DNA from: Macrostomum lignano
Lineage: Eukaryota
Length of the DNA: 64,000 nucleotides
Assembly (NCBI GenBank): GCA_002269645.1
Contig: NIVC01002787.1
Location: 76,537 to 140,536 of the forward strand
Direction: 5' to 3'
Below, one piece after another: positions 13,075 to 57,048 of this stretch. The notes beneath the pieces are model-generated. The model did not search any database. It was not told the origin of the DNA and saw only the letters and a list, made by a program, of their open reading frames with translations. The translations under genes were made by a program, and so were the position numbers. Position 1 is the stretch's first letter. Each line of letters starts with the position of its first letter.

Positions 13075-13081
13075 ACTGATA

Positions 13082-25443: not shown

Positions 25444-25574
25444 TTCAAGTAAGAAAATTCAGCTGGATTAGCGGGTGTTTGGGAGAAGAGAGAACCGGGA
25501 GGGGGATTTGCATTGCACACACCAAATAGAGACTGCGTACATCGACAGTGCATTTCCCAGTATTTGAGGTGGTT

Positions 25575-25664
25575 TTCCGACAGTTTTCCGACAGTTTTCC
25601 GGCAGTTTTCCGACAGTTTTTGGTTGCGACAAATATCCGACAGTTTGTCGGATATTTGTCGCAA
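25575..25664. repeat. 12-bp repeats (ttttccgacagt) and a perfect 19-bp-arm hairpin (25624-25664)
   Basis: ttgcgacaaatatccgaca-gtt-tgtcggatatttgtcgcaa. Confidence 0.9.
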
Positions 25665-25798
25665 ACAAAAACTCATTATCTACTAATAGTAGTCCTAGCA
25701 TATAGTACTCCTATATAGTACTCCTTATAGTAGTGGGTGTTGATTTCAACGGTGAAGAGTTCGTATTGACGTTGATCATTGAGAGAATGTAGGAAAAA

Positions 25799-26038
25799 TT
25801 ACAATTGCTTAATGATTTCTGCAAAGTTATAGTAGCTGTCGTAATCTTTTACGTAGGTTACTCCATACTTATGAAACCAGTGTCTTTAGAGAGCTAGATT
25901 AATATTAGGGACATTGATATCAACACCGGGCCAATATTTTCTCATGTATTCGCTGCATTCTAGTCTGCATTGGTACTTGGATTTGTACAATGGATGAGGC
26001 TGAGTATAATAAGAACCTGGAGAGACAACTGGAAACAT
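25799..26038 (-). pseudogene. Terminal microprotein copy with premature TAA (P1 right)
   Basis: Same ORF as 57049-57288 but CAA>TAA at 25886-25888. Confidence 0.8.
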
Positions 26039-34709: not shown

Positions 34710-34711
34710 GT

Positions 34712-36069: not shown

Positions 36070-36518
36070 AGTAGAAGGCATGAGGGGGCTTTTGGGACAA
36101 AATTTTTCACGTCCTCCATAATCCCATTAAATCTATCCATATTATCCCTGACAGAATCAGAAAAAAAGGGGGGTCGCACTCGCTCACAAAACATCGTCCA
36201 TAATCCACCTAAATCCATCCATATTATCCCTGACAGAATCATGAAAAAGTGGAGGGGCCGCACTTGCTCCGAAAACTTCGAACATAATCCCATTAAATCC
36301 ATCCATATTATCCCTGACAGAATCAGAGCATTATCCCTGACAGAATCAGAGCATAACAGGTGTCATATAATCCACTGACATCCACCCATAGCATCTTCGA
36401 AACAATAAGAAGATAATCTGCATTCTTTTCCCCACATTCAATCCGAAGCGGCGAAACCAGATCCCAAAGACTTTAAATCATCAGCGCAGGGTCCTTACCC
36501 ATTGAAAATTCTCTAAAA

Positions 36519-36758
36519 ATGTTTTCAGTTGTCTCTCCAGGTTCTTATTATACTCAGCCTAATCCATTGTACAAATCCAAGTACCAATGCAAACTAGAAT
36601 GCAGCGAGTACATGAGAAAATATTGGCCCGATGTTGATATCAATGTCCCTAATATTAATCTAGCTCTCCAAAGACACTGGTTTTATAAGTATGGAGTAAC
36701 CTATGTAAAAGATTACGACAGCTACTATAACTTTGCAGAAATCATTAGACAATTGTAG
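36519..36758 (+). CDS. Terminal microprotein, 79 aa (P3 left)
   Basis: Intact homologue of 12522-12758. Confidence 0.75.
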   Translation: MFSVVSPGSYYTQPNPLYKSKYQCKLECSEYMRKYWPDVDINVPNINLALQRHWFYKYGVTYVKDYDSYYNFAEIIRQL

Positions 36759-37031
36759 AATGTCGTTACAATACGCTTTAAGACTGTAAGACTGCAAGCG
36801 GAATGGGTATGGCAGCTGTTTCTTGTCATAGCGCGAGTGGCGTGTGCAGCATAGAGAAAAAAGCTTTTGCCCAGCTCAAGCCTTAAACGCCCATTTAGTT
36901 CCTTGTTTAAACCCCCAACCTTCTCAACCGCCCCCCCCCCAACTCTTTGAGTAGTCCGTTTTCCCAGGCAACTCCAATCAACCATTAATAGAAAATACTG
37001 CCTATAATTAGAAAATCTGCGGGTTTCGCTT

Positions 37032-37098
37032 ATTCTAGAAAATTCTAGAATAAAAAGAAAATCCATGGATTCCCGCGCCCACACCAATGGTATATAAA
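37032..37098 (+). promoter_or_regulatory. Heat-shock-type promoter: 4-unit HSE, CCAAT, TATA
   Basis: aTTCt aGAAa aTTCt aGAAt (37032-37051), CCAAT (37084-37088), TATATAAA (37091-37098), ATG at 37216. Confidence 0.8.
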
Positions 37099-37215
37099 CA
37101 GCCGATTCACACCGCCCCTCGCCTCACCCTGCCTGCTCCGCCTCGCCTCGCCCCGCCTCAACTCGCTGAGCCAGCAACTTCTTATTTTTGACTAGCTTAA
37201 TCTCTGGATCTTGCC

Positions 37216-37839
37216 ATGGATGAAGAAATGCAAGCAGGCGACAACATTTACATTGAAAACCTGGAGAACTTCATCAAGGCGGTTTTTTCTAGTAAAGATC
37301 TTGACAACTGAAATGTTTGGGCCGATAAATACAATGTAATTGCTCGGTCACCAATCTTGAAGCTAACTATCAATGGACGGCTAGCGAAAACTACCGACAA
37401 GCAATCACAAATCAGCAAGGCTCTGGACGAGTTGTGCACGGCCTACAAGACCAACAGTGAGCCTGTGCCAGTGCATTCTCTAGAAGAATTTATGCAGGGA
37501 ACATTTACGATCGACGCAGTGCTTGTACAGATTGCCAACCTTCATAAGCTAGTTGAACGGCATGGTAAGCATGGATTTGCAAACGGTCTACAGCTCGGCA
37601 GGATCTTTCTGAGAATGGAGCGGGTTCTCAGTAAGGAACAGTTCAACGAGCTGAAAAGACGTGCACCGTTCACCAGCCAGTGGACCAACTTTCTGATGAA
37701 ATTGGCTGACCAAGCTGAGAAATATCCGGTGCTACAAAGATCTGCAATGTCCCTGCACAAGCTGAAGTCGATGATTGCATACTTGCCAGAGGCCCTTGCG
37801 ATGCTGCAACAGGAAGTGGACGAAGGCTTGTTGTTTTGA
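37216..37839 (+). CDS. P3 cargo protein, 207 codons with one in-frame TGA (37309-37311); DUF3102-like helical domain
   Basis: ATG 37216 is in frame with ORF 37357-37839; LQLGRIFLRMERVL...F...S..TNFLMKLA...YP pattern. Confidence 0.65.
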
Positions 37840-37932
37840 CTTTTAAATTAGCAATGTATTGTTTATTTAGCAATTCATGAAGCTATAATAATAGCAAGTT
37901 ATTCTTGGATAGTTTTTTATTACTAATATTGA

Positions 37933-38972
37933 CACCAACCTCAAATTTTGAAACCACTGGTTTCATTTTCTGAGGTGGGTGTTTGATTAAAAGAGCAAAT
38001 TTGCTTGAGACAGTGTAGACAAATGTTTCTGCTGGAAGCAGTGCAGAACTCAGATCACCCACCTCAAAATTTGAAACCAACGGTTTCATTTTCTGAGGTG
38101 GGTGTTTGACTAGGAGAGCGTAGAAGAAAACGGAGGGATCAACCAGAAGGTTGTACCTTGTAGAGGGTAGACGTGAGTTCTAAAAATAAAACCCATACAA
38201 TGCGTTGGGAGAGCGTAGAAGAGATCACCCACCTCAAAATTTGAAACCAGTGGTTTCATTTTCTGAGGTGGCTGTTTGACTAAGCTCGGGAGAGCGTAGA
38301 AGAAAACGGAGCGGCTAGTTGTGGAGGCTAGAAAAAGAAAGACCCCTCCCGCCCGGCTCAACCCTCAACCCTCTGCAATTCTCTTTTTTGGCTTTGGCGC
38401 TGCACTGCACAGAAGTGAATTGCAGAGGGAGGGTGGGTGGAGAGAGAAGGGGGGACTTGTGGCGGAATGCGCGGACTGCATGCAGTGAGTGGCAGGGCGG
38501 GTGAGAACTGGATAGCGCAGCAGTGTAGACCCACCTCAAAATTTGAAACCAGCGGTTTCATTTTCTGAGGTGGCTGTTTGACTAAGCTCGGGAGAGCGTA
38601 GAGTTAGTTGCGGAGGCTAGAGAAGCAGTGCAGAACTCAGATCACCCACCTCAAAATTTGAAACCAGTGGTTTCATTTTCTGAGGTGGCGCGGCGCCCCT
38701 GTGCAAAGAGAGTTCAGTGCTCTGGCCCGGACTGTTGGGGAAGGGAAAGGGAGAGGAGCTCAAGGGGAAGGAGATTTCAATACAACGGAAGACTAAAAAT
38801 TCCCAGGCGCCCCTCTACCCCCCAGCGCGAGATCGCTAGTGTTATGTTTGACTAAAAATAGAATGAGCTCGGGAGAGCGTAGAGCTAGTTGCGGAGGCTA
38901 GAGAAGCAGTGCAGAACTCAGATCACCCACCTCAAAATTTGAAACCAGCGGTTTCATTTTCTGAGGTGGCTG
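37933..38972. repeat. Six dispersed ~49-bp imperfect palindromes
   Basis: CACCCACCTCAaaattTGAAACC-nnn-GGTTTCAttttcTGAGGTGG(G/C)TG at 37933, 38056, 38226, 38530, 38643 and 38924. Confidence 0.95.
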
Positions 38973-39253
38973 TTTGACTAGGAGAGCGTAGAGAGAGCTA
39001 GTTGCGAAGAGAGAGGCGCCCAGAGGACAGGTTTGGAATGAGAGGCGGTGGAGCAAGACGGGTGAGAGAAGGGCTGGCCTGAGAGTTGGTCCACCCAGAC
39101 CCCCGGCCCTCTCTGGGGGCTAGTTGCGGAGGCTAGAAAAAAACACACAGGCAGAACTGGGCGGGGTGTTCAGTGTGGTGGGACTGCGGAGAAAAAGCAG
39201 GCGCTCACCCTGAAACCTTTTATATTGTTGCATAGTTAAGACCCTGCACCTAC

Positions 39254-39534
39254 GGGGTTGTAGCCTAGTGGTTAGGGCCTTGGACTCACGACTTGAAGGT
39301 TGGGGGGTTCGATTCTCTATACCACTGCAACAATCTGTGTCCTTGAGCAAGGCACTTTACTCCGCATTGCTTCAGTTCACCCAGCTGTAAAATAGGTGCC
39401 AGCATTAGCTGGGGTAATTGAGGGTGTGTGTGGCGACCCCCAGTCCTTGGACTGAACAGCCGCACGCAGCCTTAAGATGCGCCGCGCAATAGCTGCGGCT
39501 GAGCTGTCGATTGCACATCTGCCCATTGGGCAGG
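39254..39534 (+). mobile_element. tRNA-derived SINE split by P4 (3' end and ATT-type tail at 57830-57866)
   Basis: A-box tagcctagtggt, B-box ggttcgattct (39306-39316), central gtgtccttgagcaaggcactt...cccagctgtaaaat box typical of CORE/Meta-like SINEs. Confidence 0.85.
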
Positions 39535-40250
39535 AGTAGAAGGCATGAGGGGGCTTCTGGGACAAAATTTTTCACGTCCTCCATAATCCACCTAAATCCA
39601 TCCATATTATCCCTGACAGAATCAGAAAAAAAGGGGGGTCGCACTTACTCCAAAAACTTCGAACATAATCCCATTAAATCCATCCATATTATCCCTGACA
39701 GAATCAGAAAAAAAGGGGGGTCGCACTCGCTCACAAAACATCCTCCATAATCCACCTAAATCCATCCATATTATCCCTGACAGAATCATGAAAAAGGGGA
39801 GGGGCCGCACTTGCTCACAAAACATCCTCCATAATCCTATTAAATCCATCCATATTATCCCTGACAGAATCAGAGCAGGTGTCAACTGATACCTGTTATG
39901 CTCACTGACACCGACATCCACCCATAGCATCTTCGAAACAATCAGAAAATAATCTGCATTCTTCTCCCCACATTCAATCCGCAACGTGCTACCACATCCC
40001 TAAGACTTTAAATCATCAGCGCAGGGTCTTTACCCTTTGAAAAAAAAATAAATTCTCAATAAAAATGTTTTCAGTTGTCTCTCCAGGTTCTTATTATAGT
40101 AACTCACGCTGAACAGTTCTGCCAAGCTTGTTAATGTCTACTAAGATCTATTCATACACAATGCTCTTACATCTAAAATCAACGCTTGCAACTATTTATC
40201 TAAGGGAAAATGTAAAACTACCCTCTAGGGCACCAGCTACAGAGCCAGCT

Positions 40251-40370
40251 ACAAATGTTCCTCAGCCGAACAAATGTTCTGTCGCCGAACAAATGTTCCT
40301 CAGCCGAACAAATGTTCCTCAGCCGAACATTTGTTCCTCAGCCCAACAAATGTTCCGCCGCCGAACATGT
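40251..40370. repeat. 19-bp tandem repeat x6 with GAACA-nn-TGTTC dyad
   Basis: Unit aaatgttcctcagccgaac. Confidence 0.9.
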
Positions 40371-40785
40371 ACAGAGCAAATATCTCTTCCCCCATGCAAA
40401 AGCTTTATGCCCTTACTAACTCAGAGTACGCAGGCCCCGTATACAGAGAGAACCTCTCTTCCTATACACAAGCTTCTCCTCACCGTGAGCATTTATTTCT
40501 ACATAGCAAGTTCTCTCTCTTTCCACTTCTCTACCTACAGTCAATCCCGCAGCACGTATGGGTATGCTACGTATGGCATACGTATGGCCAACCAAAACCA
40601 TACCCCCGATCCTCCATTGTCCTTCGTCCCACAGCTCTTCTCAGTCTACTCAATTCTCTCCCCTTATCCCCAAAGCCAAGTCGTCTCGCCGCTATCAGGC
40701 GGACACCCTCCCCCCCCCCAAAGTCTGTCGGGTAAGGAAGAAAGCTTATTTATACAACTACTTTTGAAGAGTTACTCGGTTAAAA

Positions 40786-41553
40786 ATGTCTGACTTGTCT
40801 GTCACACCAGATCTATCTCTATTCTCTAAAATTTTACAGCTAAATCAGTTAGCAAAAGATAACAATAAACACGAACTACTCTTATCTGAAGATGATTTAA
40901 TTCATTTAAAAGTTACATTAGATTGCCCCTTAGTACCTAGTTGTGGCAATTTAGAAGATCGATCAAAAAAATTAAATGAAGAGCGCATGGATGTAGATGA
41001 GGATCAAGATCAACCAGCAAGAAAGAAAGTAAAAGTAAAGAAGCAAAAACTACGGCCAACTGGTGAGACGCTTCATCAATATCTTTGCGCAAAAGTATTT
41101 GAATTTGAAGGGGTCGATGAATTTATTCACCCCTATTCTATTGTTGATACAAATATGCCGTTATCTGTAGAAGAACAACTACAGACGGCAGTCACAAGTT
41201 TAAAAAGATGTAATAATCGTATGCTCATTGCCACATACATCTGTGGTGTATGGTTTAACCACAACGCAGCGAAATATAGAATAGAACATCCTGAAGAAAC
41301 TGTTAAATGTAAAAGTTGTGATGATCAGGTTTTGGAGTTTTTGCAACGACATGGGATAACATATGCTAAAAGCACTATTAGAAAAATGTTGTCTCTTAGT
41401 AAAACATTACATGATTATCCTCGTTTTTTTAAGCTAAATATAACATTTGAGGAACTTTACACCTTAAAAAATGATATTGAAGACATGTTAATGTGTTCAA
41501 ATAAATATAAAACCTATTGGAGCATGGGTGTTATTCAAATAAAAAAAGAATAG
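40786..41553 (+). CDS. P4 cargo protein, 255 aa, NLS-like PARKKVKVKK; distant homologue of the P3 cargo protein
   Basis: Clean AT-rich ORF; G..F...(S/A)..T..(K/F).(L/M).L......YP motif shared with 37216-37839. Confidence 0.8.
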   Translation: MSDLSVTPDLSLFSKILQLNQLAKDNNKHELLLSEDDLIHLKVTLDCPLVPSCGNLEDRSKKLNEERMDVDEDQDQPARKKVKVKKQKLRPTGETLHQYLCAKVFEFEGVDEFIHPYSIVDTNMPLSVEEQLQTAVTSLKRCNNRMLIATYICGVWFNHNAAKYRIEHPEETVKCKSCDDQVLEFLQRHGITYAKSTIRKMLSLSKTLHDYPRFFKLNITFEELYTLKNDIEDMLMCSNKYKTYWSMGVIQIKKE

Positions 41554-41629
41554 TAAATAAAAATATTAAAAATAGAAAATAAATATAACTTTTCTTTTCT
41601 TTATCTTCTTAATAATAAGAAGATAATTC

Positions 41630-41725
41630 TCATCTTCTCTAAATCTTCTTCTTCTTCTTCTTCTTCTTCTTCTTCTTCTCCTCCTCTCTTCTCTTCTCTT
41701 CTTCTCTTCTCTTCTCTTCTTCTCT
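41630..41725. repeat. (TTC)n and (CTTCT)n microsatellite
   Basis: Directly visible. Confidence 0.9.
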
Positions 41726-41987
41726 AAATCTTCTCTTTCTTGTTTCAGACAAGTTAATTTTTTTCCATCTTTAAAAGGAAAAAGAAAGTAAGGAGATTGC
41801 TAATATCAAATTACTTTTTTTCTTCTTTTAAAGATGCGCGGGCTGTAGCAGCGGCCTTCGAGTGGCAGCCTGTGTGAGTACCAAATTTGGGAAACTAACT
41901 GCTGCTCAAAAGTATATCATGTCATCCATTTATTTTTCTTTTGCTGTTATTTTCTTAAAAAGTTTCTCTTGAATTTTCTTGCTTGAA

Positions 41988-42443
41988 TCATTCTGCTCTC
42001 TTAACCCCCAGCTCTTTCAGCAGTCTTCCAGGTTCTTTACGTGGCGCGTGCAATATAAAGCCCACCCCTTCTCTCAAACAACCGCCCACCCCCAACTTCA
42101 ACTTTGTCTTACCAAAAATAACCGCCTTGACTAATTTCCTAGCAATCGACTCACGAAATCCGCTTGAAGCCCCCATATGGTCTAGTCTCTTAAGCATTTC
42201 TTTGTCCCACCGATTCTTCTCCTCAGGAAAATCTCTATACTTGATGTCATGCCACATGCAGACAGAGTCTAGCTCGTTCACAGGCTCATGCCCAGGATGT
42301 GGATTATTGTTTTTATCTAACTGTATTTCAAGTAGATTCAAAGGCCCGCAATATTTATAGCCGGGAACTGCCCAGCCTTTGTTTGGACGAGGAAGCTTTT
42401 CTATCAGTCCATGTGAATCTATTTTACCACCAGAGCGCTGCAT
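41988..42443 (-). CDS. P4 parvovirus VP1u-type phospholipase A2 protein, 151 aa
   Basis: Ca-loop PGYKYCGPLN and catalytic DSVCMWHDIKY; true start MQRSGG at 42443. Confidence 0.92.
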   Translation of the reverse strand: MQRSGGKIDSHGLIEKLPRPNKGWAVPGYKYCGPLNLLEIQLDKNNNPHPGHEPVNELDSVCMWHDIKYRDFPEEKNRWDKEMLKRLDHMGASSGFRESIARKLVKAVIFGKTKLKLGVGGCLREGVGFILHAPRKEPGRLLKELGVKRAE

Positions 42444-42473
42444 TATTTTATTTAAAATTTTCTTTTTAAATAA

Positions 42474-43511
42474 ATGACAGATCAGAAACTTAAAAAACTC
42501 TACTACAGCGACAAAGGATTCTTTGTAGGCAAAAATGCTGTTAGTAAACTCATGAAGCTGAGTAAGGAACCAAAAGCTACAGTAGAAAAATGGCTCTCTA
42601 AGCAGGCTGTCTTTCAAGTCTATTTCCCACCAGTAAAATTTGAAAGGCCCCATTTCAGTATTTATAAACCTAATGAGGCGCACCAAGCAGATCTTCTGTT
42701 TCTCCCCAATGACTCGGGCTACAAGTATGCTCTCACAGTAATAGACATTGCTTCCAGATATAAGGAAGCTCGCCCACTCAAGACGAAGAAGTCAGAGGTT
42801 GTTGCCAGCGCACTCCAAGATATTTATAAAAACTCTCCGCTCACATACCCCCAAACCTTTATGACCGACCCGGGTAAGGAATTCATGGGTGCAGTGAAAT
42901 CCCTTATGGAAAAGAAAAACACAGAGATTCGCTATGGCAGAACAAACTTGCACAGAGACCAGGCTTTTGTGGAAAGATTCAATCTAACTCTAGCCAAGAG
43001 GCTATTCACTAAGCAGACAGCTGAAGAGCTGAAACTAAAAAGTGGTCAGTACTATTCAAAATGGACAGACCGGCTCCCCACTGTTATAGAACAACTGAAC
43101 AATGAAGTCACACGTATGACTGGATTGAAACCATCCCATGCAATTAAACAAGACACTGTCGAACTTAAGCCATCTCATAGAACAGACAACAACACTACAA
43201 CCCCACACAACACACACAACACAAAACACACCTCGAACTACCCTAAGCTTCCAGGAGTTGAATCACCATACATACTGACAAACTCTGAGTTTCTACGCTT
43301 TTTATATCTACCTGGAGAGCTAGAGAAGGACACCAAAAGAAGAGCTACAGATCCATACTTCAGCCTTGATGTACATAAAATAGACAGACATTTTACCTCC
43401 GACTCCGGTGACTATTACTTTTTATCTCAGGCCTTTAACCCTAAATCCCCCACGCGGTCATTCACTAGAGCTGAACTCCTAGTGATACCAGCTGACACAG
43501 AAATTAATTAA
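42474..43511 (+). CDS. INT: P4 retroviral-type DDE integrase, 345 aa, intact
   Basis: HQADLL...IDIASRY, TDPGKEF, VERFNLTL. Confidence 0.96.
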   Translation: MTDQKLKKLYYSDKGFFVGKNAVSKLMKLSKEPKATVEKWLSKQAVFQVYFPPVKFERPHFSIYKPNEAHQADLLFLPNDSGYKYALTVIDIASRYKEARPLKTKKSEVVASALQDIYKNSPLTYPQTFMTDPGKEFMGAVKSLMEKKNTEIRYGRTNLHRDQAFVERFNLTLAKRLFTKQTAEELKLKSGQYYSKWTDRLPTVIEQLNNEVTRMTGLKPSHAIKQDTVELKPSHRTDNNTTTPHNTHNTKHTSNYPKLPGVESPYILTNSEFLRFLYLPGELEKDTKRRATDPYFSLDVHKIDRHFTSDSGDYYFLSQAFNPKSPTRSFTRAELLVIPADTEIN

Positions 43512-43527
43512 AATATTAAAATAAAAA

Positions 43528-43974
43528 ATGACAAAGATTGAAACCAGAACCATCAATAAACTCAATAAAATCATTGAATCAAAGAAACCAGGTATTATAT
43601 CAATTAAAGGTGCCAAAGTAAAAATCGATCCCACGCAGCAAATACTTCAGTGTAATGAGCAAAGACACAGCATCACAGATGAAAAGTCAGGAGGAATCCT
43701 ACCATTAGCAGCTCTTATCCCGATTATTGCAGGCGCTGTAAGTGCCGCAGGTGGTGTAGCTGGAGCTGTAGCAACTGCCGTTAAAGCTGGGAATGATAGG
43801 GCCCACCAGCTTGAATTGCAAAAGATTGCAAGAGACAAAGGTATAACAATTAAGGCAGGAGAGGGCTGCCCCGATCGTGATGATTGTGAGAATGAAAATT
43901 CTGTAAGCAAGTCTGACATTGTCAAAGCAATCATGACACTGCACAATGCTGGGTTTACAATAATGCGGATGTGA
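43528..43974 (+). CDS. P4 pX-like protein, 148 aa
   Basis: SGGILPLAALIPIIAGAVSA. Confidence 0.75.
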   Translation: MTKIETRTINKLNKIIESKKPGIISIKGAKVKIDPTQQILQCNEQRHSITDEKSGGILPLAALIPIIAGAVSAAGGVAGAVATAVKAGNDRAHQLELQKIARDKGITIKAGEGCPDRDDCENENSVSKSDIVKAIMTLHNAGFTIMRM

Positions 43975-44098
43975 TGAGGTTTAAAACCCCACTTTATCCA
44001 GCTTCATAAACCTAGCGCTACTGATAGGATGTAGAAACAGTTCAACTTTTCTATCAGGGTGGTCACCCTCAAAAATTTTTTTTATTTTAGAGAAAAAA

Positions 44099-47000
44099 AT
44101 GCCAAAAGCCAATCCAGCAAAAGATTTGTCAACAAATATTTTTCAAAAGGCGTCTCATTTCAAGACAAAAGTAATTTACTAAGAGAAGAATGTAAACAAA
44201 AGTTTAACACCGACCCTGGTCACCTGGGAAGCTATGAAAAACAGTTGGAAATCATCAATCAATTAGAATCCAACCAGTATACGCCTATAAAAAATCCTGC
44301 AAAGGAACACCAAGAGAGGAGTCGCAACTTAGTTAACAAATATGAAACTCTCACTGGTGAAAAAGCAAAGTACCCACAAAATAAGCAGGAACAAGAGAAA
44401 TTAGAGCAATTAATCCATTTAAAAGAGTCGGAGCTTGCCACTGAAGAGATTAATTTTGCACAGAGGAAGTTTACAGAACATTACATAGAGTACACAATCC
44501 CAATTAATGATACCACCGCAAACATCTACGACTATAAACACAGCATCCAATCAGTTGTTGATCACACACTCAAAACACGCAAGACTTTTAAACTACAGAT
44601 ATCATTCAAGATTGCGTTTTATATGCCTGCGAAACCCACTGAGCATCTCGAGTATTACATGACAACAAAGGCAAAGCCATTCACCCCAACAGACACACTG
44701 GATCCTTTCCTTCAAGATGTCACTAAGAAAATTGAAGCGTTTACATCCAGAGGTTCCGGATGGGTCGTGGGAGGGATTCAAAGAGCGACTGTCATGGTCA
44801 TGAAATATGACCCACTTAAAGCCTCCTCTTATATAGAGCTCCCACACAAGCTAGCCGGCAAAAAAGCTTGCATAAATGTTAAAAATAAAGACAATTGCTG
44901 TGCCTATGGGCAGTTCTTTCTGCACTTTTTTGTGTCCCTCACCACCCCGAAAGAACCTCAAATTATCAAAATTATTTCAACTACTATCTCATTGAATGCG
45001 AAAAGAAGGGAATCAGGTTTGACAAAGGAGGCTTGGCGATCTCTCAGATCCCAAAGCTAGAAGAAGTGTTTAATAACAAAATAAGAATCACAGTCTTTGA
45101 GTGGAGTGAAAAACTGAGAATGTTCAACCGGTCAGATGTAGCAAAGACGTTTTAGATCCTGAGGGGAAAAGGCGGACTGAAGTGGATCTTCTAGTGATTG
45201 GTAATTTACTAGAGGATGCTCACTATGTTTGGATTAAAGATCTTTCAAGACTCATTCACAAGCAATTGAATAATCATCACGAGGCTGTTGCCATCTGCCG
45301 CTTGTGCCTTAAGCATTACAGTGGGCCTGAGCGCTTTGAAAAACTAGCAGAGCATGAATTATCATGCGAGGATCACCCAACAAACTGCTCTCTTCCTTCA
45401 GCTGAAGAGAAGTATCTCCGGTTTAAGAACTATCATAAGATGGAGAAGCTCCCATTTGTTGTATATGCTGATTTCGAATGTTCAATCATGCCAGAAACTC
45501 AAAAACAAACTCCAACTCAAAAACATATCCCCAATTCAGTAGCATATGCCTTTATTAATACAAAAGGACTTGTTGAGTATAATTATTTCTTTGGAGAGCA
45601 GTGTGTGGAGCAGTTTATTGCCAGAATGTTAGAGTTGCAAAAAGTGATTAGCACCCTTCAACCTGTTCCAATAAGTATGTCTGAGGAGGATGAAAGCAAT
45701 TTACTATCAGCAACTCATTGCACATCTACAGGAAACATTTAACTTGCACTAATATTAAAAACCCCACCGTTAGGGACCACTGCCACTTTACTGGGAAATT
45801 TAGAGGTGCAGCGCATAACACCTGTAATCTAAAGCTAAAATCGAACATTCATGATCTAACGATATTTTGTCACAACGCAAAGAACTATGACATGCATTTA
45901 ATAGTTGAAAAAATCGGCATGATTCCAGACATACACCTTGATTGCATCGCAGAGAACAAGGAGAAGTTTAAGTGTGTTGATATTAAACAGGATAATTCGG
46001 GTACAGGTAAAATAAGACTGAAGGATTCATATCAATTTCTAGCTGCCAGTCTAGACGAACTAAGCAAGAATCTAAAAGATGAACAATGTACATATATAAA
46101 GATGTTTGCAAGTAAAATTAACAACACTGATGAATCATTTAAACTTTTAAGAAAGAAAGGCTTCTACCCCTATGAGAATATTACTGGGTATCATGTATTT
46201 GAAGAAGGTTTACCACCACAGGAGAAGTTCTTTTCAAAGCTAACAGACTCTGGAATCTCTGACAAAGACTATGAGCACGCGAAGCATGTCTATAATTACT
46301 TTAATTGTCAAAACTTCTTCCAGTATCACCTGCTTTACCTCTACACAGATGTGTTTCTGCTGGCCGATGTGTTTGAAACCTTCAGAGACACCTGGTACAC
46401 AGCATATGGCCTCGATCCAGCACATTATGTGTCTCTGCCTGCCACTAGCTGGGAATCTTTGCTTAAAATGAAATGGGATCAAGATCCAGATTGGTACATT
46501 GAACTTCTTACAGACATTGACATGTACAATTTTGTCGAATCGTCAAAACGAGGGGGAATCTCAATTTGCGTTAACAGGTATGCAAAAGCAAACAATCCCT
46601 ACATTGAATCTTACAATAAGGAGCAGCCCTCAAACTACATTACTTACTTGGACGCTAATAATCTCTACGGGTGGGCGATGAGTCAAGATCTTCCAGTTAG
46701 AGATTTTCGATGGCTACCCTCATCAGAATTCAAATGGGACTTTTCATTGGCTGCCATTTATGAGGTTGATGTTTACATTCCACCAGAGCTTCACGACTAT
46801 TTCTCTGACTTTCCACCCTTCCCAGAGAACATCAAGTGCCCGAAAATAATCGAAACTCCCAATGATAATAATGGAACTTGGCACCTGTCAGGAACAGAAA
46901 AAGAACATACAGAGAAGCTAACACAGAATCTAAACAACAAGACACGTTACAAAATTCATTACAAACTGCTTCAGTATTTTATCTCACTTGGTTGCAGGGT

Positions 47001-47931
47001 CACCAAAGTTCACCGGGCTCTTACATTTACAGAGGAAGCGTGGATGAAACCCTACATTGATAAAAACACCCAGTTTAGGACCAAAGCAACCAACGACTTT
47101 GACAAGAACCTCTTTAAGTTGGCCAACAACTCTGTCTATGGCAAGACTCTTGAGAATGAGCGGAAAAGAACAAACCTGAAACTTGTTACCTCATCAGAGC
47201 CTGATGTTATTCAGGCAAATATGTCAAAGCCAACATTCAAAGAACTCCATATCTTTAATAGCTACTTAGGTGTGATCATATTTTACAAAACCAAGGTGAC
47301 GCTGCGCAAGCCGATCTATACAGGTGTCACTGTTCTCGACGAATCAAAACGTCTGATGTACCAATTCTTCTATGGCATGAAGCAGCAGTACAAGGATAAA
47401 ATGAAACTCTTGTACACTGACACAGACAGTTTTATTATGGACATTCAAACAGAAGACATTTATCAGGACATGCTGCAGCAAAAAGAGTTGTTTGACTTGT
47501 CTGAGTATGACGAATCTTGCAGGACGCTGAATGGTGATCAAGTGTTTGACGCCACTAACAAGAAAGTGATTGGGAAAATGAAGGACGAGATTGCTGGTGA
47601 TATAATCACTGAATTCATTGGGTTGAGAGCAAAGTCCTATTTTATAAAATGTGAGTCGTCAGACCCAATCAAAAAATCAAAGGGAATTCCGAAACGTGTA
47701 GTTAGGAAGGAAATTAATGAAGCTGAATACAGAGACGCCTTGAATTGCAACAAAAAGACATCACATGAGTTCTCAAAGCTACAATCTAAAAACCATATTA
47801 TTCACACAATTCAGCAAAAGAAGATTGGACTGTCAGGTGCAGATAACAAGAAATTCATTTTTGATGACAATATCAACAGTCTACCGTTCGGGCATTGGAG
47901 GTTAGGTTTAGGAGGTGGATATTGGGTTTAG
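44099..47931 (+). CDS. pPolB: P4 protein-primed PolB (frameshifts near 44130, 44900-45000, 45115, 45720; 737-aa intact C-terminal part)
   Basis: All Exo and Pol motifs, as in P1. Confidence 0.97.
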
Positions 47932-47964
47932 GTTTAAGAGAAAGTTTAATAAACCTCATAAAAA

Positions 47965-48365
47965 ATGACGACAAATAACTTTCTTGAAGATTTGGCTAAC
48001 GAACTGGAAATCCCAAACTTTAGAGGAATATTTATGAGGGACACTCTGCCTGATTTTCCTCTAAGAAAGGAATGCGGCATCATGAACTTTGACACCACTG
48101 ATAAGCCGGGATCTCATTGGGTTTGCTGGGTGATTGATCCCGATCGCAAGCACAAGTGTTATTACTTTGATAGCTATGGGACGGCAGTACCAGAAGAGCT
48201 AAGAAATTATATGAAGGGAAAAAATAATAAAAAATTTACCACTCAGACTTTATTCTTCAAGGTCTTAGCAGTGATATTTGCGGTGAGCTGTGCATGACTG
48301 TTTTGTATGCAATGACCAAAACACGAAAGACCTACAAGGAAATTATTCTTGGCTGTGTTTCATAG
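47965..48365 (+). CDS. PRO: P4 adenain-like protease, frameshift in the A-run near 48225
   Basis: GSHWVC, YFDSYG; the C-terminal Q/C motif lies in the shifted frame. Confidence 0.92.
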
Positions 48366-48369
48366 GGGT

Positions 48370-49071
48370 TCATTGTGCATTTCTCGTTGTCCTTCTTTCC
48401 GCATAATGTTGAAGAACTTTCTCCAGTTCATTTCTCAGCTGACTCATGTCATCAGTACCGACCATGTTCAAGTTCATTCGAATTGATTGTTCATAAAGAT
48501 CCTGAATGGTTTTGAACTCATCCTCTGAAATGAACTTATCCTCGATTGCCCTTGAAATGTACCCTATGATTGAAGTGTGCACCCCTTTCTCTTTTACTTG
48601 CTTCTCCTGTAGCTGCTTTAGTTTTTTTCGCCTGTTTCGCGCTAATGCTCCAGTAATTGCTGAAATAAGTCCACATGCAGCACCCACAGAGCCGAGAGGG
48701 ATTGCGATTGGGGCTGTGATGACTGGCAACACTGAGACAGCTGCAGCAGATCCAGATAGAACAGACACAGATCCTAGAATCATATTGCTGTAGTCGAAAA
48801 ATTTACAGTGGTTGTCATAGCGCTTAATTTTCTTTGTGTTGTGGAAAATATTTTTTTCAAGATCATCGCGCATTTTTTGAATCTCCACTAGTCGAAACTG
48901 CTGAGAGTTACAAGTAATGACAGGGTAGAGTTTTTGTTGCTCATATTGGGGTGCATTCAGATTCGGTGCCAGGTTTTGTGTGTTCGAATTCGGTGCCATT
49001 GAGTTTGGTGCTGTCGGTATTTTAGGTTCAACGTATTGAGACTGATCGTATAGAGAATTTTGTTGGGCCAT
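48370..49071 (-). CDS. P4 membrane protein, 233 aa
   Basis: Homologue of 19492-20142 with a different repetitive N-terminus. Confidence 0.85.
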   Translation of the reverse strand: MAQQNSLYDQSQYVEPKIPTAPNSMAPNSNTQNLAPNLNAPQYEQQKLYPVITCNSQQFRLVEIQKMRDDLEKNIFHNTKKIKRYDNHCKFFDYSNMILGSVSVLSGSAAAVSVLPVITAPIAIPLGSVGAACGLISAITGALARNRRKKLKQLQEKQVKEKGVHTSIIGYISRAIEDKFISEDEFKTIQDLYEQSIRMNLNMVGTDDMSQLRNELEKVLQHYAERRTTRNAQ

Positions 49072-49167
49072 TTTTTTCTCTAGAAAAAATAATAAAAAAA
49101 AATAATAAAACTACCCGGTTGAAAGATCTGTTTTCTTTTTGATAATTCCATCTGCACTGCCGGTTGT

Positions 49168-52100
49168 CTAGGCGGCTCTCGTGACGCCGGAGGATCGCGA
49201 GTCCAGCAGGCAGCGGCTGGGCGGCTGACGTTTGAGAGCGTGCCGGATTACTCCGGCGGGGTCCAGAGCTCCTTCTACTCGATCTGTAGACATGACCGGA
49301 CGAGCAGCAGATTCTGCTTCATCAATAGCAATGTCACGAAGATTGAGTGTTCTCTCCAGACGATCAAGCCTCCTTAGTATTTTACCCCAGGAGCTATACA
49401 TTCCGTTTAGATAGCTACTGTGTGATACATCCTTTCTCTTTAATGCTTCAAGTCTTTCTTTGATTCGATCATGCAACGATGTTGACTGAGTCATGAACTC
49501 TTCTAAATTATTGACTTTAACTGTGTTGGTTGCGACGTTTTCTTTAATTCTATCATGCAACGCTGTTGACTGGTTCATGAACTCTTCTAAATTATTTACT
49601 TTAGCTGTGTTTGTGAAAACTCCTCCTTCGAGAATACGCATCCGTCTATCAGTGGAATTTCCCAGAAGATTAACTGATGATCTCAAGCCGTTGATTAGCG
49701 AGACTATCGAAGTTATTTCTGACCTAAGTTCATTAGTTGCGTTTAACAACGGCACATAAAGCTTATCACTTTCAAACTTCTGCCTAGCTACTTTAAGCCT
49801 GAGATCTTCCATGTGATGTAACCGCCCTTGTCGCCTGTCCGCTCCGTAGAGAGACGAACGCATGACTAGAGGGGGCAATGACCGTAGGCTGCCTATGACC
49901 GGGCAATGACCTGACGGACCTCCAGCACCAGATTGTCCCGCCCACATGATTAGTAGCTTTGGTAGCGCTTCGTGACCAGAGGGCCAAGGACCCACATGGA
50001 CCCCACCTGTAGCCAAGGTGCAATAGTTGGTCACTCGGTCATAGTATGACCGAGTGGCTGCCACCACTCTATGTGACCTGGCGCACCTGGATCTTTCTAC
50101 CAGACCTCTCGAGGCTAGAGCCCCGCCTGGATTGGTTACCAGGGGATTTAGGCTAACAGGGGAGACGCATGCAGCCGAGTACAGGGACTCTGCTTGGGGC
50201 ATGATCGGGAACTCTGGGCTCAATCCTGGAGGATTTCTCAGCAGGGGATCCTTTGTGGCTGTGAGCGAGGCTGACTTGCGACTTTGATTACTAAGAGTAG
50301 TATGAGGCGAACATGTACTGTCTACAGTTTAGATTGCTCAGGGCGAAGGGACGCGTTAGCATGGGGTTGCAACCTTCCTACTGCCATTCTGTGCCAAGAC
50401 TCGCTAATCCCTCTACTGCACGCACACGCGGCCCCGCAGCACGCACTCACAGGCGGGCTGTGCACGGGGAGAGGCCATTAGCTTACCCAAACTTCCTTAT
50501 GCTTTGCCACCCGGGAGAAAGGCTTAGCAAGCCATGAGTGAAATGATGGTGAAAGATTGAATAATGATGAAGTTAGTTAATAGTTAATAATTAGGCCCTT
50601 AGGCAAATAAGCAGGCAATTAGGCAGCTTCACTATTGAGTAAAATACAGCAAAAGATACGGTATCACAATTGGCTCAGCTCTCTAATCAGACAATGGAAA
50701 ATAGGCAAACCCCGGATAAGCAAAGGCAATTAGAGCACAAATTAGTAGCAGGAACTTACCGGCAGCTGCACAGAGAGAGAGAGAGACGGAGTGACCGAGG
50801 GCGGCTGTAGGCTGCAGTCAGGCGGACGGTGAAGCGGCGATGCGCTGGAGCGACGAGGCGCTGATGTAGATCAGGCGATGCTGATGATGCTGGGCGGTAT
50901 CAGACCGCTGGCCGATAGGCGAGCTCACTTGGGGAGCTAAGGATAACTTGGCGGTAACAGACCGCGGGCCGGCAGGGATTCGTCTTATAGACGAATGGGT
51001 CAGAACTCAATCTGACAGCAAGTCCAAAGAAGGACGAGGAGAGGAACAGAGATAAACTCAGTTGAGTATTCTCATGCCGAAATCGCTTCCTTTTATAGAC
51101 CTCACAGCCGCCTCCTCAAGGTCGTTACCATGGCTCCCTCTCTCTGATTGGCTGCCGGCAGAATGACGTCAGAATGAGTCATGATGAGAAGCATGAGACC
51201 GGCATAGCAACATGAGAAATCGGGAAATTGCGCAATCCGGAGGTGGGGTGGGGGGATAATTGGCGCAGCGGGTGGTCGCGAAAGTGTTGCGCAAGCAAAC
51301 ATTGAGAACAATAGGGCTGGGGTCGAGAACAAAGGAATTGGAAATCGGGGATCATTGGGGAAAACTGAGAACAATGGAAAAGTAAACATTGGAGAAAAGG
51401 TGATAATTAGGTGCGAAAACGAGAACAAAAGAAAGAGAAAATCGGAGAAAATGTGATAATTGGTGGGGGTCGAGAGAACAAAAGAAGCAAAAACGAGAAC
51501 AATAGAAGCGGAGGTGGGGTGGGTGTCACATGAGAAATTTGGGAAGGAGAACAATAGCGTGAGAAAAGGTTGCGCAAGAGAGGGGGATGAGTCATCGATG
51601 AGTCACCGAGGGGGAGAAGGGGTCACACGACTTGCGTCACCGTTTGGGAGTTTGAGAGGGGATGGGGAGACGGTGAGCACACAAAGTACTGAAAGTAGAC
51701 ACAGGGAAAGAGGGGACAGCGCAGGAAAAGAGTGCAGAGGGAGACAAAAAAAAGGAGGAGGTAGAGAAAGTACAGGAAGAATAGGGCGGGAACAGAAGAG
51801 ATAGGGTAGAGGGGGAGGTACAGAAAGGGGTAGGGGCTCCGGAAAGGCAGGTGTGGCGGCAGGAGAGACGGGACCAAGGCAGCAAGAGATGTGCAGCAGA
51901 GCGGGAGTCTCCAGGCCCGGTCGGAGACCTGGCCGAGTCTCGACAGCTCTGTGCAGAGGGTGCACGGGATAGGAGGCACTTTCGAAAAAGTTCCCATGCC
52001 CTATCCCGCGACCAGAGCGTGGTTACATCACATGTTTATTTGCAACTGGTGCATGGAGCGCTCTAATTGTTTCAGTCTGTTTTTATTCAGTTTGATCTCT

Positions 52101-52207
52101 GGGATCTTTTCGTCGCTGTTGATATATCGCCTGTCAAGGATGGATATCTGAGCTGATGTAAGAGCGCTGTTGCCAGAAATGGATTCACCTGCAAAGTTTA
52201 TCGACAT
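49168..52207 (-). pseudogene. P4 coiled-coil/fibre-like gene interrupted by the 2.2-kb insert
   Basis: 5' part MSINFAG from 52207; 3' part MEDLRLKV... ends at 49168. Confidence 0.88.
49814..52030. mobile_element. 2,217-bp TG..CA insertion, 4-bp TSD CATG (large solo LTR or non-autonomous TIR element)
   Basis: TGATGTAACC...GGTTACATCA 10-bp inverted ends; CATG at 49810-49813 and 52031-52034. Confidence 0.85.
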
Positions 52208-52223
52208 CTTTTAATAGCAAATT

Positions 52224-53024
52224 TTAAATTACAGTTCTTTTTTCTTTGCTGATAATCACAAACTGGTAAGGCTGATTCCACTTGTCATAGCAAAGATTAA
52301 CGAATTCCTCTTGTGAAATCTTTCTGCTTGAGTTTTTTGTTGGATTTATAAAATAGGCAGGCGCAATGACCTCATTGTAAAATCTTTTTAACCTGTCCTG
52401 TGGAATGGTTGGAAACAGGAGAATCAGATTGCAGTTCCCACGAATTGTTTTGTTCGGGAGCTCGAACCAGTTCTGTGCAATGTAAATTACATTACAATTG
52501 TTATGTCGCCCTCTTGTAAAATAGTTTTCTATCTGCTTCTGTGGGCCTGTCATACAATCATCAAAGACGATCAAATGCTTTCTCCCCTTTTCTAGCTCAT
52601 CTGGTTGGGGTAGAAGTTTGGTCTTTGGATCAGCCTGTGGATCTCCATAGGTGAACACTTTAATGTTCTGCCATTTTTCATTGTCTTTGAGGTGCTTTGC
52701 ATATTCGGCAGCTACAATTTCAGGGTTACTGGGAAGGCTCATTTGGTTATTAAAACATGCAATAATGTCCTCTTTGTTCAGCTTGTTTTGAAGCCCTGCA
52801 ATCAGCATTCTATACTCATCTTGATACAGTGTGGGAGAGTAGATGTGCAGAGTGTCATAGTCGATAAATCCAGGTCTAAGAAGCATGTTAAAGACTCTGA
52901 ATGTTTTACCTGAACCTGACGAACCAACAACAATGCATCTGAAGTGACTCGGGATTGACTCATGATGAGAAAACTTAATCTGATTACGCGTCCAGTGAGG
53001 ATTGAAGTCGTTTGAAAAGTCCAT
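52224..53024 (-). CDS. P4 packaging ATPase, 266 aa, intact
   Basis: GSSGSGKT, LIVFDD, RGRH. Confidence 0.95.
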   Translation of the reverse strand: MDFSNDFNPHWTRNQIKFSHHESIPSHFRCIVVGSSGSGKTFRVFNMLLRPGFIDYDTLHIYSPTLYQDEYRMLIAGLQNKLNKEDIIACFNNQMSLPSNPEIVAAEYAKHLKDNEKWQNIKVFTYGDPQADPKTKLLPQPDELEKGRKHLIVFDDCMTGPQKQIENYFTRGRHNNCNVIYIAQNWFELPNKTIRGNCNLILLFPTIPQDRLKRFYNEVIAPAYFINPTKNSSRKISQEEFVNLCYDKWNQPYQFVIISKEKRTVI

Positions 53025-53232
53025 TTTTTCTATGATGAAAAAAAAAATTAAATAATAAATAATTTAGATGTGTCATTTCGGGACTTAGATGTCTCATTTT
53101 GGGACTTAGATGTGTCATTTTGGTACTTAATTGTGTCATTTTGGGACTTAGATGTGTCATTTTGGGACTTAGATGTGTCATTTTGAGACTAGTCTTGTAC
53201 CTTTACATTTCTTGTACCCTCGGAAAGTACCT

Positions 53233-53613
53233 TTAGTCAAATTTGAAACCACTTTCTTTTTTAATGCTTGCTCTCATCTTCTCATAGACTGCAGGGTCCA
53301 CACTGTCTGGGTTTGGGGCCAGCGGGGCCAGTGGAGGTTGAATCTCTTGTTTAGGTGTTACAGTATCCTTTATCTTTTTGGCTGCTGTGGCTACACTGCC
53401 AGCCGCTTCGGCAACGTTCTTGATGTTCTCTTTGTTATATCCAATGACCTTAAAAATCTTGGCCCCTTGAGCGATCAAATCAGCAAGACCGTTCCCAGAG
53501 CGTTCTTTTCTTGGATAGTGGCCTGCAGGGAAAAGTCCAGATCCGCGTTTAATAAGATTAAGTTCCTCTTTGTCATAGTATTTGTCCACGTCTTTCTCAA
53601 AAATAATCGGCAT
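53233..53613 (-). CDS. P4 GxG core-like protein, 126 aa
   Basis: Start MPIIFEK at 53613; homologue of 17258-17647. Confidence 0.8.
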   Translation of the reverse strand: MPIIFEKDVDKYYDKEELNLIKRGSGLFPAGHYPRKERSGNGLADLIAQGAKIFKVIGYNKENIKNVAEAAGSVATAAKKIKDTVTPKQEIQPPLAPLAPNPDSVDPAVYEKMRASIKKESGFKFD

Positions 53614-53629
53614 CTTTTTAAATAGAAAT

Positions 53630-54841
53630 TTATTTTTTGTTAAACCGTGAAAGCAAAAGTTCTCTTGCTCTTTTATCGATATATTTTCTCTCAAGCATTT
53701 TGTCCAGGATGTTGACAAATTCTTTTCTATTCTCGTCTTTCATTCCGGTCTTTGCCGCTCCTAGAAGAACAGCTAACCGCTTGTAGAATTCAGGCATGCC
53801 TTTTCCGGAAGAGCTTGGAGGTGATTCGAATGATTGGTCAGAGGAGGAACTGTCATGTGGCGCTTGTCTTTGTTGAGGTGTGAATACTCTGTCATTGATT
53901 CGCTTCATTCGTTCTGGGGAGAGCCGCTCTAATTGTCGCCAAGTATCAGGGTTCGTATCTTTGTACTGGGAAATCTCATTTGGCCCTGCTTTTTCAAGCG
54001 CTTCTAGTACTTGTTCGGGTGTGATTTGTTGCTGTGGCGGTGGAGGTTGTTGTGGTTGTGGTTGTGTTTGTGGTTGCTGTTGTGGTTGTTGTAGTTGTTG
54101 TTTTGGTTGCTGCTGTTGTGGTTGCTGCTGTTGTGGCTGTGGTTGTTGTGGTTGTTGTCTTATGACCTCTTCTTGATCCGGCAAACCAAACCATTGTTTA
54201 AAGTATTTGTATTTTCTAAACCTGTTCAAGTCAATCCTGTTTTCATGTAAAACTTTCAAAACACCGTTGTTCTTGAGAATGTCTATGTCCCTCTCTAAAG
54301 CGAAGGTAACCAGATCTCTATAATTCTTTAATTGCTTCTCGGATATTTTTTCCTGATTTTTAGTCATGTAGTCGAGTAAACTTTGAGTGAAGGGGATTCG
54401 TTTAGTTTCTGCGCCTTTATTAATTGAAATAGTTTCCTTCGTCACTTCAATGTTGTAATCCGCCGGTTCCCCGGTGATATTTTTTCGCCAGGCGCTAATT
54501 CCAAATATATATTTTCCATCATCCGTTACGGGGCCAAAAAAGTTATCCGTCACTTTCATCTGCACTGGTTGTCCTGGTTGCTGAGCCTGTGGTTGTCCCG
54601 GTGAAGATGGGATTTTACCCAATGTGTTTTGCAACTGGCTCTCTTGAATATCATCAATTGTTTCCTTCACAGTGTCGATGTTTTTCTTCGCTTCTGTGTA
54701 TCCAGGTTTGTGAAATTCGGTGGCTGCTTGGACGAATTCATTGTAAGATTGTTGTTCTTTGTTGATTAGTCCGGTAACTCGTTTCTCTGCTTGCGCCAGC
54801 TTTTCTAGTTCAGAGATATGATATGAACTTTTCCGCTTCAT
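53630..54841 (-). CDS. P4 poly-Q core-like protein, 403 aa, intact
   Basis: Long ORF divergent from MCP; Q/P tracts; SGKGMPEFYKRLAVLLGA C-terminal domain. Confidence 0.85.
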   Translation of the reverse strand: MKRKSSYHISELEKLAQAEKRVTGLINKEQQSYNEFVQAATEFHKPGYTEAKKNIDTVKETIDDIQESQLQNTLGKIPSSPGQPQAQQPGQPVQMKVTDNFFGPVTDDGKYIFGISAWRKNITGEPADYNIEVTKETISINKGAETKRIPFTQSLLDYMTKNQEKISEKQLKNYRDLVTFALERDIDILKNNGVLKVLHENRIDLNRFRKYKYFKQWFGLPDQEEVIRQQPQQPQPQQQQPQQQQPKQQLQQPQQQPQTQPQPQQPPPPQQQITPEQVLEALEKAGPNEISQYKDTNPDTWRQLERLSPERMKRINDRVFTPQQRQAPHDSSSSDQSFESPPSSSGKGMPEFYKRLAVLLGAAKTGMKDENRKEFVNILDKMLERKYIDKRARELLLSRFNKK

Positions 54842-54871
54842 TTCTTATTTTATTTTATTTTTAGTTAAAAA

Positions 54872-56158: not shown

Positions 56159-56180
56159 ATATTTTTTTGTGGGTGAAAAA

Positions 56181-57044
56181 ATGGAAGCCATAGCCGAAAG
56201 ACTAAACAACATTGTTTCACACTCTAAGGAGAGCATTCCTATTACAATAACCGGGCGAATTAATGACTCAAACGGGATGTTTGTTGAAAAATTAGAGCAG
56301 GCGATTCGCCTGGATCCAGGCGCTAATTACCATGTCTATCTTAACGACTTCACCGGTTGGTCAAACGTTCCTAATGTGATGGCAGCAAATAATAAGTTTT
56401 ATTACAAATGGAAAGGTGCAGCAGCAGACCCTGTGGTATTCCATGTGAGCACGCAAAGTGTGGATACCTACAATAACTTTCTAGAAAATGTCTTTACTAA
56501 GAGAGGCCATTTTGAGACACCTGATGCGAGTAAGCCAGAGAAGAAACTGTTCCCTGTCAAACTAACCTATGATCTCACTGTAATGAGAGTGGTCATGCAA
56601 GTTCACAAAAATGCGGAGGTTGAGTTTAAAGATGACACTTGGTATAGGGAACTAGGATTCGAGAAGAAAGTTTATAAGGCAGAATCCGCGGCGCAGACCG
56701 CCACTCAAGCATCGAGGACCGTTAAAATGGCCCGGGAAAATGTAAGCGGTTTGTTCTTAGCACCCAATATTGCAGACATTGTAAAGGGTTTGAATATTCT
56801 AATCAGAAGCAATCTCAGTCTTGATTGGGTATTTAAGGGAAAGCGAACGAATATTTTGTACAACATCTCCAACTCTGTTGCTGGAGGACAGATGGTGGTA
56901 GAGAAACCAAATCCAGTGAAAAGAGTTGTATTGAGTAATAAAGAGATTCACGAGATTGTGCTACAGTTTGAGACTGAAGATGGGATGGGCGTTGATTTTA
57001 ATGGGGAAGAGTTTGTATTGACGTTGATCATTGAAAGAATGTAA
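56181..57044 (+). CDS. mCP: P4 minor capsid protein, 287 aa, intact
   Basis: ATG in aaaaATGgaagcc context; penton-type C-terminus. Confidence 0.85.
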   Translation: MEAIAERLNNIVSHSKESIPITITGRINDSNGMFVEKLEQAIRLDPGANYHVYLNDFTGWSNVPNVMAANNKFYYKWKGAAADPVVFHVSTQSVDTYNNFLENVFTKRGHFETPDASKPEKKLFPVKLTYDLTVMRVVMQVHKNAEVEFKDDTWYRELGFEKKVYKAESAAQTATQASRTVKMARENVSGLFLAPNIADIVKGLNILIRSNLSLDWVFKGKRTNILYNISNSVAGGQMVVEKPNPVKRVVLSNKEIHEIVLQFETEDGMGVDFNGEEFVLTLIIERM

Positions 57045-57048
57045 GAAA

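Follow-up and report, generated by a model that had tools for sequence, protein, structure and literature searches.

Accessory DNA beside the conserved core is already known in Polintons (Mavericks). Passages of Widen et al. (bioRxiv 10.1101/2022.07.12.499685) describe a variable cargo region in nematode Mavericks, those of PMC8097293 describe accessory regions flanking the core of vertebrate Mavericks, and in the part of PMC11131425 considered here the accessory genes listed for coral polintoviruses have unknown functions, and neither ParB nor a helix-turn-helix is named; a 2026 preprint (10.64898/2026.10.13.758929, in the part covered) shows palindromes and small arrays of repeats in a figure of polisuvirus genomes. 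The present work concerns such a region in Macrostomum lignano (contig NIVC01002787.1, positions 76,537 to 140,536; this whole 64-kb stretch is the window throughout), where two near-identical Polinton copies, designated P3 and P4, carry unrelated DNA directly inside the left terminal inverted repeat (TIR), and where each of these slots holds an array of palindromes together with a gene for a predicted DUF3102-like protein.

The kind of slot is already known for Mavericks, and what is new is the cargo, i.e. DUF3102-like proteins beside palindrome arrays. As far as passages of PMC8502044 and PMC8097293 go, the locus resembles the Alpha adintoviruses and the vertebrate Mavericks, respectively, in core-flanking accessory regions and in the 6-bp target site duplication (TSD), and it has PLA2-like and pX-like genes as do the Alpha adintovirus virion modules (passages of PMC8502044); the main texts of both papers hold no DNA-binding or helix-turn-helix term, and their passages no arrays. 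Nematode cargo, in passages of 10.1101/2022.07.12.499685, consists of host-derived proteases and kinases with introns, whereas here an intronless DUF3102-like gene stands with dyad arrays; the string "palindrom" occurs 0 times in the main text of that preprint. The preliminary description of this DNA, made from its letters alone, had stated that no such module was known for Polintons. Accessory regions beside the TIR prove to have been described before, but a DUF3102-like gene with a palindrome array in Polintons was not found in the literature searched (most subscription papers and supplements lay outside its scope, and the supplement gene tables of two preprints and of PMC11131425 could list the P4 family introduced below).

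The locus bears on open questions with few named players, namely Polinton integration versus replication, the keeping of excised copies, and the coexistence of near-identical copies. A viral DNA-binding protein is combined with an array of palindromic sites in EBNA1/oriP, LANA/TR, and baculovirus IE1/hr; these modules are fixed, whereas the slot contents described here are swapped between near-identical genomes, and the folds are unrelated as far as tested. ParB, KorB, and SopB with their parS or sopC arrays, of which sopC offers the analogy for clustered sites, are alike in a weak fold likeness and in a gene placed beside clustered dyads, and DUF3102 holds the parB position in some plasmids; the slot proteins differ in that no CTPase domain was seen, no ParA accompanies them, the host is eukaryotic, and binding is putative.

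The Slot inside the Left Terminus

Self-comparison of the window together with a terminus scan resolved four copies (P1-P4) of one Polinton family. The features of P3 and P4 that matter for the slot are as follows:

36070 onward: P3, resuming at 57836 after P4 and running past the window end
36070..36757 (+): left TIR of P3, beginning AGTAG, with a small open reading frame (ORF) toward its inner end
36758..39534: P3 slot, first part, with gene, hairpin array, and an insert like a short interspersed nuclear element (SINE)
37030..37098 (+): region upstream of the P3 gene, with a 24-bp palindrome (37030-37053) and a TATA-like box (37091-37098)
37216..37839 (+): predicted DUF3102-like gene of P3, 207 codons, DUF3102-like part about 37489-37719, GC content at third codon positions (GC3) 0.54
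37933..38972: P3 array, six 49-bp imperfect palindromes starting at 37933, 38056, 38226, 38528, 38643, and 38924
39254..39534 (+): SINE-like insert, tRNA-derived as judged by eye, with A/B-box-like motifs
39535..57829: P4, nested within the P3 slot, with a perfect 6-bp TSD
39535..40098 (+): left TIR of P4, shorter than the other TIRs
40261..40372: P4 array, a 19-bp minisatellite with a GAACA-nn-TGTTC dyad
40786..41553 (+): predicted DUF3102-like gene of P4, 255 amino acids, intact, DUF3102-like part about 41146-41454, GC3 0.25
41988..43511: start of the P4 core, with a PLA2-like frame (-) and the rve integrase (+, 42474-43511), both from Pfam
57836..~58160: P3 slot, second part, resuming past the nested P4

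The cores of P3 and P4 have 96.8% identity across an alignment of 5,677 bases, which covers only the portion of P3 lying within the window; the identity falls to 0.3–0.55 left of about 42090. Between the two slots there is no BLAST match, and the longest common word is a 12-mer C-run. Both the earlier observation of unrelated DNA inside the left terminus of near-identical copies and the exchangeable slot that it implied, with unrelated contents between common TIRs and a near-identical core, are borne out by these figures. The region is a variable accessory (cargo) slot of an Alpha-adintovirus-type Polinton, and the cargo or accessory feature of Mavericks given in passages of Widen et al. is present in P3 and P4. 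Recombination between the TIR and the core, both conserved, would replace the contents of such a slot.

The P3 slot has also received a SINE-like insert, for which no ARAGORN or Rfam match and no TSD of at least 6 bp were found, and it is into the 3′ part of this insert that P4 was inserted. That P4 lies within P3 reflects one insertion event, into SINE-like sequence of a dispensable region, and is hardly informative on whether the copies are compatible.

Two Probable Remote DUF3102-Like Proteins

Compared pairwise, the P3 and P4 proteins are alike at chance level only (BLASTP E 7.8; 55% of 2,000 shuffles score as high), and the two genes do not represent alleles of a single recent gene. In GC3 they differ from each other and from the core (0.42–0.45), which points to different donors. 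The weak common pattern noticed earlier fared better in profile alignments, where the G..F and YP motifs stand in register despite the chance-level pairwise likeness.

Direct searches gave little for either protein. Sequence scans against Pfam, PHROGs, NCBIfam, and PDB returned no real match, Pfam DUF3102 (PF11300) was not matched by either protein at E≤10, nor by any of 20 P4 family members, word-based homolog searches with P3 and P4 found nothing, phage sequences yielded no tblastn match to P3 or to the one P4 relative used as query, and a prokaryotic genome scan with one P4 relative was equally empty. A family was gathered from a representative library for the P4 protein: it counts 19 relatives (best 41% identity, E 3.7e-34), to which a search with the family profile, retrieving only 3 proteins, added 2, giving 21 relatives in total. 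In the Atlas the nearest neighbours are Mucoromycota clusters for P4 and phage and archaeal clusters for P3, and both proteins retrieve the same three named sets, which is a lead only.

The bridge between the two proteins is a DUF3102 profile seeded with a confirmed DUF3102 protein (rank 24 in the Foldseek search reported below) and built from relatives gathered from plasmids and genomes, from which 16 of 33 domains were left out as redundant or short, and then 2 partial rows. Against this profile the P4 family reached a probability of 83% with 6 DUF3102 sequences and of 96% (E 4.5e-9, 89 columns) with 15. The corresponding hidden Markov model (HMM) ranks the open frame of P3 first among 680 window frames with 7.4 bits (E 0.16); of 1,000 shuffles 897 were reported, none scoring higher than 5.4. 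In hhalign P3 against DUF3102 gave a score of 22.9 (probability 8%, E 0.0045), compared with at most 17.2 among the 69 control frames and 16.3 among the 100 shuffles. At profile level the likeness to PF11300 takes in the long helix, the G motif, and the next two helices; the P4 family differs in an extra N-terminal helix, in a YP-containing C-terminal part, and in having no parA partner. The likeness to DUF3102 named in the preliminary description thus holds as a profile-level match for both proteins, weak for P3, but not as a Pfam match for either, and that both are remote DUF3102-like proteins is, judging from sequence profiles, probable.

A motif likeness to LmbU family regulators may also exist, and no NCBIfam LmbU match was obtained among 22 P4-family members. 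These regulators are treated in passages of PMC6510168.

The model of the P4 protein is all-helical, with a predicted local distance difference test (pLDDT) score of 86. Foldseek placed DUF3102 proteins at ranks 9 and 24 among viral models, none at E≤0.001, and found no match in PDB. Among the top 50 VIA rows of solved chains 6 are ParB, KorB, VirB, SopB, or Spo0J cores, and the ParB/KorB-type matches have Z 2.6–3.2, root-mean-square deviation 3.5–5.7, and 72–83 aligned positions, so that a ParB/KorB-type helix-turn-helix is weakly suggested by the model for the P4 domain. The check for a DNA-binding fold gave in this way a hint for P4, below significance, but none for P3, whose single-sequence model (pLDDT 56) matched generic helical bundles only and was not used as evidence.

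DUF3102 Genes in Bacteria

The DUF3102 gene lies directly after a parA-like gene in 5 of the 34 fetched loci, namely in four Leptospira plasmids and one Synechococcus plasmid (two phyla); this is not a rate, since close relatives within Methylobacterium, with flanks that are 1.5 kb long or cut, account for many of the 25 genome loci. The plasmid matches fetched were 5 of 10 in one set and 3 of 4 in another. On plasmids the DUF3102 genes overlap the ends of parA-like genes (L002:811-1386, L004:2920-3477, L006:2899-3453, and L032:1066-1734), and such overlap in two phyla suggests that DUF3102 may be an unrecognised centromere-binding family. Leptospira plasmids are described as parA-parB-rep in passages of PMC4338851, and by gene order this parB would be the DUF3102 gene. 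Other DUF3102 loci have an adjacent integrase, recombinase, or portal gene, and no parS-like array stood out in 7 intergenic stretches beside the bacterial genes. Taken by sequence and gene neighbourhood, DUF3102 looks like a DNA-binding protein of mobile elements that sometimes stands at the centromere-binding position.

The Palindrome Arrays

The six 49-bp hairpins of P3 were confirmed: they are symmetric at 18–20 of 24 positions, with folding z from -3.7 to -6.4, and have a block layout 7-5-7-3-7-5-7 and an irregular spacing of 115–302 bp. The array of P4 proved simpler than its first account, since of the six GAACA-nn-TGTTC dyads 4 are exact, but 1 is mismatched and 1 truncated, and all belong to one 19-bp tandem unit; the dyad arose once. 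The 255-amino-acid ORF beside it was confirmed as intact. For the P3 gene the 24-bp palindrome and the TATA-like box upstream would make a candidate promoter or operator.

The stable folding of the P3 hairpins, together with the position of this array directly 3′ of its gene and with a TATA-like and a B-box-like motif seen by eye ahead of the right array of P1, would suit hairpins that function as RNA transcribed from the slot, as decoys like virus-associated RNA (VA-RNA) or microRNA (miRNA). Nevertheless, this explanation is very improbable: no Rfam match was obtained at gathering score, e-value scans returned generic hairpins far below threshold, the linkers of the P3 hairpins stay mispaired in 6/6 copies, and the P4 dyads are too short for folding alone.

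The units of the P3 array bear shuffled flanking blocks, and at least 2 insertions have been taken by the P3 slot, both of which would fit arrays that are separate non-autonomous elements, whether like miniature inverted-repeat transposable elements (MITEs), like Helitrons, or satellites, that entered a slot of dispensable DNA in the way that P4 and the SINE-like insert did. On the other hand, the best flanking direct repeats are just 6–7 bp long, in wide search windows, the arrays are absent elsewhere in the 64 kb, and all four different arrays adjoin TIRs, which makes such an origin improbable.

Several minor observations concern the same arrays. In one P3 hairpin (37956-37958) and one P4 dyad (40325-40336) the spacer is the reverse complement of that in the neighbours, as though the segment between the arms had been flipped. 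The TIRs of P1 and P2 contain a hairpin with an AACA-nn-TGTT dyad (12309-12344, 26215-26250, 27691-27712), with a layout as in the P4 minisatellite, which is absent from the left TIR of P3 and from both TIRs of P4. A 219-amino-acid ORF spanning the P4 minisatellite has no Pfam match and probably is open by chance.

Possible Function of Gene and Array

P3 and P4 each may have taken up, from different donors, a remote relative within a DUF3102-like superfamily of helical DNA-binding proteins, with a domain that would be a ParB/KorB-type helix-turn-helix. Each protein would bind the clustered dyads next to its own gene, and the bound dyads would form a local nucleoprotein complex near the terminus, which either would control the cassette and the adjacent integrase end or would serve as a centromere-like handle by which excised copies are tethered. 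To this reading we assign a probability of roughly 0.4. Both genes have an array (2 of 2), within 0.5 kb, the weak fold hint for P4 points to a type of domain that binds dyads, and the arms of the P3 hairpins are conserved as their centre drifts (in the central 41 bases of the six units, 2/3 centre positions and 2/38 arm positions are variable), which is counted for dyad binding. The combination of a small DNA-binding-type protein with an adjacent candidate site array makes a direct binding test possible, and even if the pairing fails, an unannotated family with no Pfam, PHROG, or NCBIfam match is assigned to a DUF3102-like group and placed in Polinton cargo.

The other array-bearing slots belong to P1:

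11945..26528: P1, in inverted orientation, with a perfect 6-bp TSD
12758..13838: P1 right slot, six 34-35-bp palindromes in ~60-bp tandem units (13082-13417)
25461..25800: P1 left slot, with a 64-bp right-end copy, four 11-bp tandem units, and a 41-bp palindrome (25624-25664)

Among the six TIR-adjacent positions of the window, arrays occur at 4 and a DUF3102-like gene at 2. The third module announced for P1 does have its array of 34-bp palindromes, but at the right end of this inverted copy and without a DUF3102-like frame, and as a third left-slot allele it was rejected for its position and lack of the gene. Under binding in cis and trans, array-only slots such as those of P1 would be cis sites served by the protein of another copy, or else cassettes that have lost the gene. 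The 42-bp segment 38147..38188 (+) of the P3 slot is 86% identical to 12775-12816 in the P1 right slot (BLAST E ~2e-8), and 64 bp of right-end DNA have been copied into the left end of P1; both argue for piecewise mosaicism of the slots. These 64 bp (25733-25800), which come after the left TIR of P1, belong to the last core gene at a right end, and their presence suggests gene conversion of the terminus, with a copy lacking a right slot as donor.

Gene-less arrays at both ends of P1 and this mosaicism are what would be expected if a slot prone to recombination carried gene and array as independent passengers. DNA binding by the DUF3102-like protein would then have little specificity (in chromatin, packaging, or general repression), and the palindromes would be cis elements for host or core proteins, i.e. 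an enhancer or origin, for which the baculovirus hr regions are a parallel, or else by-products of template switching at panhandle termini. The conservation of the putative recognition helix in the P4 family and the integrases, recombinase, and portal gene that also adjoin bacterial DUF3102 agree with such passengers; the array within 0.5 kb of both genes, the arrival of the same protein kind at the same slot from two different donors, and the deviation of both the P3 and the P4 proteins from the helix motif of the P4 family speak against them. This explanation is the main rival, somewhat less probable than the binding of each array by its neighbouring protein.

A number of findings weigh against the binding of each array by its neighbouring protein. 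Cognate pairing, although plausible, rests on the small number of two gene-bearing copies, and both P1 slots, i.e. 2 of the 4 that bear arrays, are without the gene, with no DUF3102-like frame and no frame above 0 bits against either profile. The frame span of the 207-codon P3 gene reported earlier is present but is interrupted at codon 32 by an in-frame stop (37309-37311), beyond which 175 codons are open. With the DUF3102 HMM the P4 protein on its own gives -0.2 bits and is linked through its family only, the P4-family profile does not match P3 significantly (E 0.11 and E 0.4; 4 of 466 shuffles as high), and all fold matches of P4 are below significance, the best (Z 3.5) being an unrelated non-ParB chain. 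The putative recognition-helix motif Y.RKLR is kept in 12 of 21 relatives, mostly less than 50% identical, which is not as expected for a hypervariable specificity helix. On the side of the arrays, a P4-type dyad arises in 6.2% of 20,000 shuffled 19-bp units and could be chance, one variable centre position of the P3 hairpins is a CpG, and gene and array stand in opposite order, the array following the gene on its 3′ side in P3 and preceding it on its 5′ side in P4; the two arrays are also built differently. No ParA partner was found among the 28 ORFs scanned with Pfam, which gave only the A32-like packaging ATPase, the right part of P3 being beyond the window. Finally, neither array motif turns up again in the cores or TIRs of the window copies: the P3 motif is found only in its six units, and the P4 motif recurs elsewhere in the window only as one mismatched site, in P2.

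This lack of recurrence in cores and TIRs also argues against repression of core promoters in the manner of phage immunity; the operators that a regulator-operator cassette after that model, as first proposed, would have at core-gene promoters were not found. An immunity or incompatibility function is speculation. It is rather unlikely that the slot is a swappable specificity cassette, in which a ParB/KorB-type protein of bacterial plasmid ancestry and its own centromere- or operator-like array would form alleles acting as compatibility groups. If this were true, near-identical elements would keep separate episomes, or escape mutual repression and nest, and array-only copies such as P1 would be cheaters or decoys that use or titrate the protein of another copy.

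Two observations on the arrays stand apart from these readings. Six units are present in each of three unrelated arrays (37933-38972, 40261-40372, and 13082-13417), which may be coincidence. Before the right array of P1 (12960-13080) a TATA-like box, a CUGAnGA-stem-GAA hammerhead-like core, and a tRNA B-box-like motif were seen by eye, the hammerhead-like core having no Rfam match.

Other Features of the Window

The remaining parts of the copies are the following:

27428 onward: P2, right end first, interrupted by P3 at 36070
57050..57829 (-): right TIR of P4, with no slot between the TIR and the last core gene

TIRs with perfect 6-bp TSDs bound P1 and P4, the right end of P3 being beyond the window. 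P4 has Pfam matches to rve integrase, PLA2-like, pX-like, pPolB, and A32-like ATPase; an adenain-like protease and a double jelly-roll capsid are weak Pfam matches below gathering score. As predicted from sequence, this gene set fits an Alpha adintovirus-type Polinton/Maverick (passages of PMC8502044). Both copies are decaying, with the polymerase pPolB of P4 in pieces and stops in the integrase frame of P3.

The small TIR ORF of about 79 codons near the inner end (36519-36758 in P3) is present in 5 of 6 TIRs and is cut off in the left TIR of P4. The coiled-coil gene of P4 is interrupted by a 2.2-kb insertion with inverted ends (49817-52030), and P2 contains an insert like a long terminal repeat (LTR) and a Gypsy-type gag-pol region (28606-29446, 30540-35100). 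A further virus-like gene cluster, in which a promoter region is duplicated, apparently surrounds P1 and P2 (9590-11749, 26517-27432); its ORFs have no significant Pfam match. At 8388-8891, outside all four copies, there is an isolated piece of the last core gene, 500 bp long and 92% identical.

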